From an uncultured Nitrospiraceae bacterium (GTDB lineage Bacteria > Nitrospirota > Thermodesulfovibrionia > Thermodesulfovibrionales > Dissulfurispiraceae), in the NCBI GenBank assembly GCA_963705105.1, contig CAVPIW010000005.1, forward strand, positions 96,001-160,000: a stretch of 64,000 bases of DNA, written 5' to 3'. Every line of letters begins with the position of its first letter. The stretch's first letter is position 1. A program made the translations under genes and the position numbers. Below, piece by piece: positions 50,525 through 62,716 of this stretch. The notes below the pieces were generated by a model. That model did no database searches, was not told the origin of the DNA, and saw only the letters and a program-made list of their open reading frames with translations.

Positions 50525-50870
50525 CTATTGATCGCTTGGAGCCGAATCCCGTTTCTTGCGCGCATGCCGTCGAAACCAGTCGACGAGGCCGTTGAAAGCT
50601 CTTTTTCCTGTAGCCGCCTCTAATGCGAATCTCTCCAACTCCGTTTGTGTGGTTTCCAGTTTGTACCCGTTCATTTCGAGGAAAATCGCCGCTGATGTAA
50701 CAGCGGTCCGTTTGTTTCCGTCAACAAAGGGATGATTCCTGACAAGAGATTCCATGAGTGCGGCAGCCTTGTCATGAATGTCCGGATAGAGATCTTTGCC
50801 CTCGAATGTGGCCCTCGGCCTGGCGACTGCGGATTGAAGAAGACCGACATCACGAACGCCGTGAGCCCCG
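50525..50870 (-). pseudogene. Doc/Fic-family toxin, 5'-truncated
   Basis: 'HGVRDVGLLQSAVARP..TFEG.DLYP...KAAAL..SLVRNHPFVDGNKRTA'; start region replaced by a repeat end; no Phd antitoxin seen. Confidence 0.8.
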
Positions 50871-50893
50871 CCTTTTCATGCAACCACAGGGTA
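50865..50893 (+). repeat. Right end only of the ~200-bp repeat family
   Basis: GCCCCGCCTTTTCATGCAACCACAGGGT. Confidence 0.7.
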
Positions 50894-50901
50894 TAGTTTT
50901 T

Positions 50902-52143
50902 TTAGACTGACGGATTGACCGTCAGGATCCTGCTAACAATGTCCGGATAGCGCGCGATCAGCCTGAGCTCGTCGTCGGTCAACGGCTTCTGAAGGTGCAT
51001 GTTCGCATGCTGGACAAGGTTCAGCACGGACCTGGCCTCACTGTCGTTGCGAAAACGGATGCCGAGCTTGTCATAGACGTGCCTGAAGCCCTTGATCCCC
51101 CCGTATTCACCGGTCGTGATGACACGGCCCGTTTCGATCATATCCGGCTCTCCCCTGCCGACTTCCGCAGGCTCGTATAATTCGTAGCTCCTCCATTCCT
51201 TGAGAGCGCCGTCCACATGGATACCTGACTCATGGGCAAAGGCGTTGGCGCCCACACCGGGCTGGTTGACCGGCAGCGGCAGACCGAAGGCATATGACGC
51301 ATACCTGGCCGTCTTCCACGCCTTTGTCAGGTCCACATGGTCGTCGCAACTCATTTTCGCTGCAAGACTTGGGGAAAACTTCAATGCCAGCATGGCGGAG
51401 ACGAGATCGCAGTTTCCGCAGCGCTCGCCGTACCCGTTGATCGTCGTGTTGATGGCGCAGTCGACACCTGACTCGACCGCTCCCTGAGCGCCCGCGATCG
51501 ACAGGGCTACCGCCATGCCGAGGTCGTTGTGACAGTGCATCTCGGCGGGAAGCCCCGTCGCCGCGCAGAGCTCCTTTATCCGGTCGTGGACCGTCAGGGG
51601 TTCTTCTGTGCCGATAGTGTCACAGTACCTTATGCGGTCGGCACCGGCCTCTTTCCCCGCTAAAGCGAATTCGATTAGCCGTCCCATGTCCGTGCGTGAT
51701 GCGTCCTCCGCATTGATCCCGACGGTCCCGGCCCCGAGGCGGCGCGCCAGGGCGACGGCATCGGTCATGGATTTCACGATCTCATCCCACCGCTTTTTTC
51801 CCCTGAACTTCCCCGCAATCATGATGTCCGATGTCGACACCGAGAGGTTCAGGTGCCTGATGCCGGGACAGTTCCCGAACGTCGTCTCTATGTCTTCGAC
51901 GATGCCCCTGCACCACCCCCCGAGCCGTATTCTTCTGAAGGCCCCCGCCTTTTCGAGTTCAAGGTTCGCGTTTATATAGTTCACCTCATGACGGAGGGTC
52001 GGGAACCCGATCTCGCTCTGGAAGACGCCCATCTCGTCGAGATAGAGGTTTATCATCGTTTTCGCGAGCTTCGGCAGCAGGATGCGCGAGGCCTGGACCC
52101 CGTCCCGGTTCGTCACGTCGATGAAATGCACCGGAATACTCAT
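50902..52143 (-). CDS. nifV: Homocitrate synthase (DRE-TIM family)
   Basis: DVTNRDGVQ, EDASR, HCHNDLGMA, GERCGN, FAHESGIHVDG; last gene of the nif cluster. Confidence 0.8.
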   Translation of the reverse strand: MSIPVHFIDVTNRDGVQASRILLPKLAKTMINLYLDEMGVFQSEIGFPTLRHEVNYINANLELEKAGAFRRIRLGGWCRGIVEDIETTFGNCPGIRHLNLSVSTSDIMIAGKFRGKKRWDEIVKSMTDAVALARRLGAGTVGINAEDASRTDMGRLIEFALAGKEAGADRIRYCDTIGTEEPLTVHDRIKELCAATGLPAEMHCHNDLGMAVALSIAGAQGAVESGVDCAINTTINGYGERCGNCDLVSAMLALKFSPSLAAKMSCDDHVDLTKAWKTARYASYAFGLPLPVNQPGVGANAFAHESGIHVDGALKEWRSYELYEPAEVGRGEPDMIETGRVITTGEYGGIKGFRHVYDKLGIRFRNDSEARSVLNLVQHANMHLQKPLTDDELRLIARYPDIVSRILTVNPSV

Positions 52144-52160
52144 GGTTTCCTCAGAGCGAG

Positions 52161-53051
52161 TCAGACCATCTCGCAGTATTCTTCCCCGATGCGGGCGTTC
52201 AGTACCTCGAGCTCCATGTCCCTGTCCTCTCCGAGGACGCCGAACGCATCGGCCCTGCACTGCTTGCAGTGTGTCATCTGCTCGATATAGGGAGAGCATT
52301 CCCCGCGGATTTTCGCGATCATCTCCCTCGAAGGCCGCTGCAGGGACTCGAATTCAGCCTGCGGAATGAGAGGGATGATGTTCTGAATGTCGGCGCCCTG
52401 GCTCCCTGCAAGCCGGGCGATGAGAGGCATCTCGGCATCGTTGACCCCCGGTATATAAACCGTATTGATTTTTACCATGAAGCCGGCGTCTACGGCATTC
52501 ACGAGTCCTCTCTGCTGGTTGGCCACGATCTGGGCGGCCGCGTCTGCGCCCCGGAGGACCCTTCCGCGGTACTGCACCCAGGAGTATATCCTTTCCGCCA
52601 CCTCAGGGGCCAGGGCATTGATCGTTATCGTGACGCTCCTGACGCCGGCCTCCATGAGGTCCCCGATCCTGTCCGGAAGGGACAGGCCGTTCGTGGAGAC
52701 GCAGAGCGTCAGGTCGGGGAATTCACGGTTGATTTGTTTCAGCGTTTTGAACGCTGCATCATTGGCGAGAACGTCTCCGGGACCCGCAATGCCTATGACC
52801 GAGAGGTTCTCGTTTCTTTCGACGACGGCACGCACGCGCTCCAGCGCCTCCGAGGGGGAAAGCACCCTGCTGGTGATGCCCGGCCTCGATTCGTTTGCGC
52901 AGTCGTACTTGCGGATGCAGTAGCGGCACTGGATGTTGCAGGCCGGCGCCACCGGCAGGTGAATGCGTCCGAACCTGTGATGGGCCTCCTTCGAAAAACA
53001 GGGATGGGTCTTCCGTATGTCCTTCTCCCTGAACAGCGGCAGTTTCATCAT
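52161..53051 (-). CDS. nifB: NifB, stand-alone radical SAM domain
   Basis: HPC, CNIQCRYC, NESRPG, AGPGD, STNG, HCKQCRADA; no C-terminal NifX-like domain. Confidence 0.92.
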   Translation of the reverse strand: MMKLPLFREKDIRKTHPCFSKEAHHRFGRIHLPVAPACNIQCRYCIRKYDCANESRPGITSRVLSPSEALERVRAVVERNENLSVIGIAGPGDVLANDAAFKTLKQINREFPDLTLCVSTNGLSLPDRIGDLMEAGVRSVTITINALAPEVAERIYSWVQYRGRVLRGADAAAQIVANQQRGLVNAVDAGFMVKINTVYIPGVNDAEMPLIARLAGSQGADIQNIIPLIPQAEFESLQRPSREMIAKIRGECSPYIEQMTHCKQCRADAFGVLGEDRDMELEVLNARIGEEYCEMV

Positions 53052-53080
53052 CGATTGTCCCTCTCTTTCACGTGATTACG

Positions 53081-53275
53081 CCCTCCGGAAAAGCGGGGCG
53101 AAGATGCCGAAAAGAATTGGTGCTGCGAAACCTTTGCCTTCCCATAAGGGTCATGTCAGTCCAATGGTTGATGAAAGGTCGGATGGAATCCCGAACTTCC
53201 AATTTTAATGATCATTCTCACTATCAGCAAAGCTTTGAAGCACTTTGCCCCGCTTTTTCGTGTAACTGACAAGGC
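53081..53275 (+). repeat. ~200-bp palindromic repeat family, subtype B
   Basis: GGAAAAGCGGGGCGAAGATGCCGAAAAG..GGTGCTGCGAAACC...CTTTGCCCCGCTTTTTC. Confidence 0.85.
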
Positions 53276-61288: not shown

Positions 61289-61423
61289 TCGTTTCTCCTT
61301 TTTGCAGGACGAGGACTTCAGCATTTATATGCCGCCCGGCTGAAGCTCCTCATCCCTCCGCTGTATGGTTACTACGGAAACCAGACGACCAACGCACCGA
61401 CGGGGGCGTCGTCTTCAGCACGT

Positions 61424-61463
61424 TTAGGCGCTTTGCCCCACCTTTTCACGCAACCGCAAAGTT
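61424..61463 (+). repeat. Right end only of the ~200-bp repeat family
   Basis: GCGCTTTGCCCCACCTTTTCACGCAACCGCAAAGTT abutting the nifH stop. Confidence 0.7.
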
Positions 61464-62302
61464 TATGCGGCCTCCTCGTTTTCGAGAATGCCGAAATCCA
61501 TAAGAAGCCCCTCGAGTTCATCCATGGAAAGCGGCGTCGGTATGACAAGGTTTCTGTTCTCGGCGACCTTCTTTGCGAGAACCCTGTATTCATCCGCCTG
61601 AGCATGCTCCGGAGAGTACTCGATGACGGTCATCCTCCTCAGCTCGGCGCGCTGCACCTGGTTGTCGCGGGGCACGAAATGGATCATCTGTGTGCCGAGT
61701 CTCTTTGCAAGCTCTGCGATGAGCTCATATTCCTTGTCCGTCTTCCTGCTGTTGCAGATCAGGCCGCCGAGACGGACGCCGCCGCTCTGCGCGTACTTCA
61801 GGATGCCCCGGGAGATGTTGTTGGCGGCGTACATGGCCATCATCTCGCCCGAGGTGACGATGTAGATCTCCTTTGCCTTCCCTTCCCGTATGGGCATCGC
61901 GAACCCGCCGCAGACGACGTCGCCCAGGACGTCATAAAAAACGAAGTCCGTCTCTGCATCATAGGCTCCGTTCTCTTCGAGAAAGTTGATGGCTGTAATG
62001 ACACCGCGGCCCGCGCAGCCGACCCCGGGCTCCGGTCCGCCCGACTCGGCGCACTTGATGCCCTTGAAACCGTGGAGAAGCACCTCCTCGATCTCCAGGT
62101 CTTCCACCGTGCCCCTTTCCCGGGCCATGTCCATGACCGTCGCCTGGGCCTTCCTGTTCAGGATGAGCCGCGTCGCATCCGCCTTGGGATCGCACCCGAC
62201 GATCATGCACCTGTAGCCAGCCTCGGCAAGGGCGGCAACGGTATTCTGCGTCGTCGTCGACTTGCCGATGCCCCCTTTTCCGTAAATCGCTATCTGTCTC
62301 AT
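61463..62302 (-). CDS. nifH: Nitrogenase iron protein
   Basis: [45 protein letters not shown]. Confidence 0.98.
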
Positions 62303-62339
62303 GTGGAGCCTCCTCTGGAAAATGTGTGGAAATGATTTT

Positions 62340-62355
62340 TGCAACCTCTGTGCCA
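62340..62355 (-). promoter_or_regulatory. Sigma54 promoter of the nif operon
   Basis: Minus strand TGGCAC-AGAGG-TTGCA, exact consensus. Confidence 0.9.
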
Positions 62356-62512
62356 TGTTTGCAGAATGGCTTAAAATGGGCTTCTGTTGATTTCCCGATT
62401 TTTCATCTCGGAACAATTTTGAATGGATAAAGACAATATTGGCGCAAAAATGGCAGTCGCTGGCACTTCATCTTTCTCCTGACCCCCCGCCCGCCAGGGG
62501 GGACAAAAGCGT

Positions 62513-62716
62513 TAACCTTATCGTTGCAATACACTCCCGGGAAAGGCGGGGCTGGGGTGAATGCGCCGAAAACCTTGCTGCGGCGACACCAATGCCTTCC
62601 ATGAAAACCATTCACCCGACGGCTGAAAAAAGGTGAGCCTTTGCAGACACTCACACTGTCACTGACGCTGTTCTTCAGAGCGCTTCGCCCCGCCTTTTCA
62701 TGCAACAGAACGGTTA
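62513..62716 (+). repeat. ~200-bp palindromic repeat family, subtype A, both termini present
   Basis: TAACCTTATCGTTGCA ... TGCAACAGAACGGTTA termini; inner GAAAGGCGGGGC / GCCCCGCCTTTTC inverted repeat. Confidence 0.88.

Follow-up and report, generated by a model that had tools for sequence, protein, structure and literature searches.

Why does a palindromic repeat of about 200 bp recur in spacer after spacer of one nif operon, always in the same orientation? The operon lies in a 64,000-nucleotide stretch, here called the window, of contig CAVPIW010000005.1 (positions 96,001 to 160,000 of the forward strand) from assembly GCA_963705105.1 of an uncultured Nitrospiraceae bacterium. An initial annotation had left three options: a miniature inverted-repeat transposable element (MITE), a domesticated element acting on nif mRNA, or recombination joints by which the operon was assembled. 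The analysis bore out the first and identified IS1380 as the family of the likely mobiliser, and it found no support for the mRNA element or the assembly joints. Sequence comparison indicates that the repeats in the nif spacers are very probably old copies of a genome-wide MITE, likely moved in trans by an IS1380-family transposase. They share their ends and a 4-bp footprint with IS1380 elements, and are therefore likely parasitic insertions, not a nif control device.

The repeat in the nif operon

Gene models place the operon on the minus strand in the order nifH-D-K-EN-X-I1-I2-fdxN-B-V. The eleven copies claimed for the window were recovered as ten profile matches plus a right-end fragment at 50865, and the eight assigned to the nif region all lie on the plus strand. 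An element is present at each nif spacer named as holding one, but only five of the eight copies are near full length; those in the nifH/D and nifD/K spacers and after nifV are fragments of 27-55 bp (Table 1). The junctions said to lack an element do lack one (EN/X, -1 bp; I1/I2, -4 bp; B/V, 17 bp). The outer and inner inverted repeats, the GCCGAAAA block and the two right modules are as described, except that the outer ends reduce to CCTT...AAGG, the flanking AA and TT being part of a 4-bp target duplication. The copy upstream of nifH lies ~160 bp upstream of a sigma-54-like -24/-12 site and so is probably not part of the nif transcript.

A genome-wide MITE family

Profiles built from ten subfamilies gave 1010 non-overlapping matches in the genome and 2 in the reversed genome. 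The family amounts to 161 kb, or 3.8% of the genome, and 516 copies are near full length, at about 195-340 bp. The element is roughly 210 bp long and non-coding; no open reading frame (ORF) in paired elements of 240-560 bp reaches 90 aa, and the small ORFs within elements are short and differ between copies. By the simple gene calls made for this analysis, 643 of 651 strong matches are intergenic. Each subfamily is a patchwork drawn from two left modules, several middle ones and two right ones.

The element spans CCTTnnnGTTGCA to TGCAACnnnAAGG, with the terminal inverted repeat CCTTnnnGTTGCA at both ends, and the genome consensus ends are CCTTATCGTTGCA and CCTTgCAGTTGCAT. A 4-bp direct repeat of the form TNNA flanks 89 of 148 copies in a first count, where 9.9 were expected, and 102 of 177 in a second, against 11.9 after shuffling (maximum 23 in 1000 shuffles). 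Eighteen perfect duplications are not of the T..A form, which favours the 4-bp over a 2-bp reading. Targets are most often TAAA, TTAA and TTTA, and TGAA, TTGA and TAGA were also found. On the sequence features tested, the element is a bacterial MITE as such elements are described in PMC2229807, PMC4133298 and PMC11602168.

By the profile method the 12 kb of nif hold 7 matches, versus a genome mean of 2.9, and 27 separate 12-kb intervals hold at least 8 and are thus denser than nif. Rfam models found only tRNAs in the window, and nine element loci gave one chance match (E 0.51). An exact scan for this genome's left end gave 0 hits in metagenome contigs and 0 among the genome-contig matches listed; a blastn-level search of 30 relatives gave one weak partial match, and homologues were reached only by profile. 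An integron attC site was considered and set aside by eye, the end motifs standing in the wrong order for the attC consensus.

A probable IS1380 partner in related genomes

The initial annotation had proposed looking for a transposase bounded by the same ends. IS1380 insertion sequence (IS) elements with these ends were found in related genomes, and none in this assembly. With a sequence-only model, full-length homologues were found in 7 of 150 other genomes of the order, and the end motif that the homologues share was found in 47 of 317 genomes, this one included (2 matches in a reversed control). A scan of all species genomes gave at least 125 loci, and the flanks of 80 were examined. One autonomous element of 1518 bp, from a Nitrospirota metagenome-assembled genome (MAG), has the duplications TCAA and TTGA, one of them imperfect, and another of 1541 bp, from a deltaproteobacterial MAG, has the duplication TTCA. 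Their ends read CCTTAACGTTGCATAAA / CCT(T/G)nnAGTTGCATAAA, and their ORFs score 227 and 222 bits respectively against the cut-off of 180 for NCBIfam NF033539 (IS1380). Within the order the IS protein was matched in 13 of 317 genomes, 11 of them at 56-78% identity; six complete IS copies measure 1520-1521 bp, and five of these have a perfect 4-bp duplication. The IS ends agree with the consensus ends of the MITE over the first 13-14 bases, and derivatives of 49-76 bp that consist of the ends alone still show the target duplication.

The partner resembles ISPa33a of the IS1380 family (1561 bp, inverted repeats 16/16, 4-bp direct repeat; PMC4133298) in its length of ~1.5 kb, its short ends and its 4-bp duplication. 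Unlike the insertion sequences of that family (ISPa33a, ISPsp9, ISEcp1, ISPme1), the window elements encode no transposase. IS1380 serves as the outgroup of piggyBac in PMC10813416. No named IS was matched to the partner subgroup, which shares only 24% identity with a further IS1380 from the order, one with different ends, and which had no plasmid match at E 1e-50. By eye, the leader of the partner IS1380 (L233, L234, L128) contains an inverted repeat expected to mask the ribosome-binding site of the transposase.

Other candidate partners were rejected. The IS1380 of genome G192 has other ends and a 5-bp repeat, and no DDE_Tnp_1 locus of this genome has the MITE ends among the flanks inspected (15 loci, one of them seen in part).

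It is very improbable that the repeat is REP/REPIN-like or of another kind, moved by an HUH enzyme or another DDE family, with the IS1380 end match a coincidence. An assembly without IS1380 would suit such an enzyme, and strand-specific G·T wobbles (described below) suggest a single-stranded form. Against it stand the terminal match combined with an identical 4-bp TNNA duplication in IS1380 elements, the ends-alone derivatives with their target duplication, and the DDE_Tnp_1 flanks.

Stop codons and polarity

Contact with stop codons is as claimed, with an element end at 0 bp from the stop of nifX, 1 bp for I2 and for H, 6 bp for fdxN, 9 bp for K and 10 bp for V. The proposed preference for sites just after stop codons follows from the TNNA target, since targets such as TTAA, TAAA and TGAA contain or overlap stop codons. 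It is seen at both ends of the element, where stop-facing ends lie at 0-1 bp in 16 of 85 and 12 of 84 cases. Among copies in short tandem spacers, the upstream stop is at most 10 bp away in 28 of 71 that are same-sense and in 50 of 92 that are opposite-sense.

A tie between the polarity of the element and that of the genes was not found: genome-wide, 169 copies are opposite to the gene and 153 the same (p=0.40). Orientation varies with GC skew, the ratio being 220:107 in regions of negative skew and 47:60 in those of positive skew (p=2e-5), on both gene strands, and from this we infer that the bias reflects replication direction. This contig, outside nif, stands at 57:19, and because the contig itself is so biased, eight of eight nif copies on one strand has a probability of ~0.10. 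The initial annotation had said that random orientation, even density and a match to an IS-derived element would speak against its proposal, and orientation random with respect to genes, intervals denser than nif and an IS-derived match are largely what was found.

History of the nif copies

Sixteen nif regions were taken from 41 family genomes having nifK. This comparison of spacers in sister taxa, suggested earlier, found the element in 0 of the 16 regions (one has hexamer runs only). The order H-D-K-EN-X-I1-I2 is kept without the element in 15 of them, and the remaining locus yielded only H-D-K; the nearest relative keeps the whole order through nifV, again without it. Contigs of run X4, which represents a related population ~93% identical in nif genes and not this strain, skip 53070-53284 (fdxN/nifB) and 54580-54816 (nifX/I1), leaving these sites empty, although at neither of the two is the junction a clean single TNNA. 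Identity to the nearest copy is 80-87% for the five near-full nif copies, which puts them at the 3rd-22nd percentile (median 92%).

The insertions left a trace at the nifD/nifK junction, which is a -4 overlap in 11 of the 16 relatives and is uncoupled here (59760-59865). The old overlapping ATG survives at the nifD stop; after it come the MITE fragment, then a fresh ribosome-binding site and a new start codon for nifK. Because most junctions carry a copy in direct orientation, the repeats might be taken for recombination joints by which the operon was assembled, and this is almost certainly wrong: it is refuted by the gene order conserved without the element in relatives, the old overlap sequence is still visible before the inserted fragment, and the copies belong to differing subfamilies, each with its own target duplication.

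Fold and host RNA function

A check for covariation had been proposed. The arms of the element do covary within the genome, but private compensatory double changes, of which there are 24 where ~2 were expected, are as common outside co-transcribed spacers (8/129 in divergent or convergent spacers versus 9/157 in short co-transcribed ones, p=1.0). Private substitutions occur at similar rates at paired and unpaired positions, without strand bias, and G·T versus A·C mismatches do not track the host-transcribed strand (p=0.65). The compensatory changes would fit repair of one arm from the other by template switching, as described in PMC7202029 and PMC8794818. Folding of the nif copies gives z-scores of -0.03 to -1.9 on the mRNA strand and of -2.1 to -5.8 on the other; the medians of 25 random intact copies on the corresponding strands are -4.0 and -4.5.

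Weighing the explanations

Several observations weigh against old MITE copies moved by IS1380 as the whole account. The IS1380 transposase is absent from this assembly (99% complete, 19 contigs), with no PF13701 match and a best tblastn E of 1.3; 69 of the 516 copies have a neighbour at ≥98% identity, so a source of transposase was present recently, and yet the assembly holds no enzyme. The sequence common to the IS and the MITE is limited to about 14-17 terminal bases and one short motif, and a profile of IS leaders found no similarity to the left half of the MITE outside the CAC-N5-GT motif. At nif the element occupies 6 of 9 junctions, compared with 471 of 2565 tandem junctions across the genome; the nif figure is the highest among 618 overlapping co-directional windows (binomial 0.002, chosen post hoc). 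All five near-full nif copies fall within the oldest quarter of the family, each empty X4 site is seen on one contig matched at 85% likeness, and 2 of the 24 private compensatory changes are in nif copies, one each in nifX/I1 and fdxN/nifB.

The last of these points bear on whether MITE-derived copies at nif were later domesticated as RNA elements that set nif mRNA cleavage, stability or stoichiometry, which we consider unlikely. Top junction occupancy among co-directional runs, the retention of old copies and the compensatory pairs in two nif copies argue for domestication, as does the effect of co-transcribed ERIC and Correia elements on mRNA stability (PMC2229807). The mRNA element of the initial annotation nevertheless fared poorly, being not conserved in orthologous spacers and folding near shuffle level on the mRNA strand. 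Of the eight nif copies three are fragments; a close relative lacks the element at two of the sites and 16 family members lack it at all of them, and neither the compensatory changes nor the mismatches follow the host transcript. An occupancy of 5/9 is reached in four other co-directional runs, and elsewhere in the genome 7 and 8 junctions are occupied in two mixed-strand stretches.

The favoured account, insertion of a MITE mobilised by IS1380, would run as follows. An IS1380 transposase would cut TWWA-like sites with a 4-nt stagger; where operon spacers are short, such a site would often be the stop codon itself, and insertions would survive only between the stop and the next ribosome-binding site, with replication direction favouring one orientation. 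Once inserted, copies would degrade and exchange modules, and now and then one arm would be repaired from the other; the transposase may since have been lost from the genome, or may be unassembled. The nif operon would probably have gathered many copies because a conditionally silent operon tolerates insertions.

Architecture across phyla

Nineteen lineage representatives of the element (<75% mutual identity, mean 55%, length filter 195-225 bp) measure 204-216 bp, 17 of them 211-216. In an 18-sequence alignment both sides change at 13 of 13 pairs of the inner 13-bp stem, and 89% of cells pair versus 77.5% after shuffling (0/500), with the structure drawn from the same alignment. Arm mismatches on one strand are 37 G·T and 8 A·C (13:2 representatives), in lineages that are non-independent; a first-pass count of 26:16 (p=0.16) had included one mis-oriented and one broken copy. 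The CAC-N5-GT motif lies 102-114 nt from the end in MITEs, by a loose match. In the IS leaders, where it holds the GTG start of the transposase, it lies at 110-113 nt in eight full-length leaders and 89-90 in two others. Most of the database relatives listed for the IS protein are 458 aa long, consistent with the GTG start.

This architecture seems to be selected in mobile master copies, not at individual insertion sites, and at a guess the selecting factor is a transposase or host-factor site together with the single-stranded fold. It is conceivable, if on balance doubtful, that the elements form an ancient IS1380-type MITE superfamily across Nitrospirota and other phyla, in whose mobile masters selection would act on two features: single-stranded folding of the transposase-sense strand, and a central site at the same spacing as the start of the transposase. 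If so, transposition of the IS1380/piggyBac kind, or its control, would use structured RNA or single-stranded DNA, and an internal enhancer or operator would lie ~110 bp from the end. Such a requirement for a fold or internal site in the IS1380 family is not described in the literature searched.

Relation to known elements

Like ERIC/IRU, Correia/NEMIS and RUP, the element is small, non-coding, intergenic and of high copy number, with terminal repeats and a target duplication (PMC2229807, PMC4133298). It also shares with them a long end-to-end hairpin and a partner IS deduced from common ends. Those elements have TA ends, and RUP an IS630 partner, whereas here a 4-bp TNNA duplication goes with IS1380; the effect on mRNA stability shown for ERIC is unsupported for this element. 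The Tn3-derived TIMEs have, as here, a fixed length across hosts (262 bp), short core motifs and long stem-loops (PMC4133298), but they carry Tn3 ends and a 5-6-bp duplication and are usually single copy, compared with IS1380 ends, 4 bp and hundreds of copies. In the excerpts of the literature searched (including PMC9330008, PMC4133298 and PMC11578231) no IS1380-derived MITE appears, and MITE catalogues such as PMC11602168 may already hold these sequences. The search likewise turned up nothing on such repeats in this order.

For nif biology the consequence is little: the operon would be one decorated by parasites, with the uncoupled nifD/nifK overlap as the one lasting change. For transposon biology, an orphan MITE filling 3.8% of a genome would be paired with an IS1380 partner. 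IS1380, the family of ISEcp1, has a poorly understood mechanism, for whose study nature supplies minimal substrates here, of 49-76 bp and ~212 bp, together with an internal motif that is conserved. A caution also follows, as neither covariation nor contact with stop codons nor uniform polarity needs a host RNA function to arise.

Features of the window and other repeats

Table 1. Features of the nif region and other MITE copies in the window
Feature	Position	Strand	Remarks
Near-full MITE, upstream of nifH promoter	62516..62713	+	Hexamer-run right module; perfect TTAA duplication
Sigma-54-like -24/-12 site for nifH	62341..62355	-	Between upstream MITE and nifH
nifH	61463..62302	-	TIGR01287 above cut-off
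MITE fragment, right end, nifH/D spacer	61407..61461	+	1 bp from nifH stop
nifD	59861..61288	-	TIGR01282 above cut-off
MITE fragment, left end, nifD/K spacer	59797..59841	+	
nifK	58249..59760	-	TIGR01286 above cut-off
MITE, nifK/EN spacer	58066..58239	+	Initial ~19 bp missing; hexamer-run right module
Repeat of second, unrelated family	57892..58068	.	Core inverted ends ACGAGGAYAGGG; abuts and clips nifK/EN MITE
Fused nifEN	55211..57868	-	NifE and NifN models above cut-off
nifX	54816..55211	-	TIGR02663 above cut-off
Full MITE, nifX/I1 spacer	54603..54815	+	In contact with nifX stop; flanks TTAA/CTAA
P-II-family gene pair	53816..54549	-	nifI1 54232-54549, nifI2 from 53816; named by position
Longer MITE variant, nifI2/fdxN spacer	53576..53814	+	Internal hairpin insert (~53700-53735)
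fdxN	53280..53558	-	TIGR02936 above cut-off
Near-full MITE, fdxN/nifB spacer	53063..53273	+	Left end eroded
nifB	52161..53030	-	Radical SAM domain; TIGR01290 above cut-off
nifV-like homocitrate synthase	50902..52143	-	Best model TIGR02660, below cut-off
MITE fragment, right end	50865..50891	+	10 bp past nifV stop
MITE outside nif	45270..45464	+	
Young MITE	13785..13996	-	98.5% to nearest copy; nested in second-family repeat (13749-14031); sole opposite-strand copy
Old MITE outside nif	7168..7360	+	

The second repeat family in Table 1 has copies of mostly 180-280 bp, and a loosely defined motif has 54 paired matches across the genome, a part of which are due to chance. Many of its copies enclose a whole IS1380-type MITE, and the two seem to spread as a composite. 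Copies of an element with a 565-aa DDE transposase, presumably IS1634-like, lie in or at the edge of MITEs (G000:C10 ~241000-243100, C6 ~934000).

Runs of the ACACT(C/G) hexamer are a separate repeat family, with 330 runs genome-wide, 121 of them outside strong MITE matches; they also occur at L020 ~5100 and 11350-11400, and the relative G044 has similar runs in its nifH/D and nifX/I1 spacers without a MITE. The hairpin inserts found in two MITE subfamilies, among them the one in the nifI2/fdxN copy, begin with GTAG and resemble GTAG-type REP sequences.

Among the named matches to the GlyA protein at 46074-47315, all but one, which carries the label Chloroflexota, are from Nitrospirota (Thermodesulfovibrionales, Dissulfurispira), and this places the host in that phylum. 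At 48277-50341 an intact gene of the AAA_14 + DUF4143 type precedes a second one that is split. Other short palindromic repeats, of the GTCATTCC type, lie at 3825-4087, 30774-30858, 32391-32477, 35560-35610, 48100-48147 and 50256-50327.

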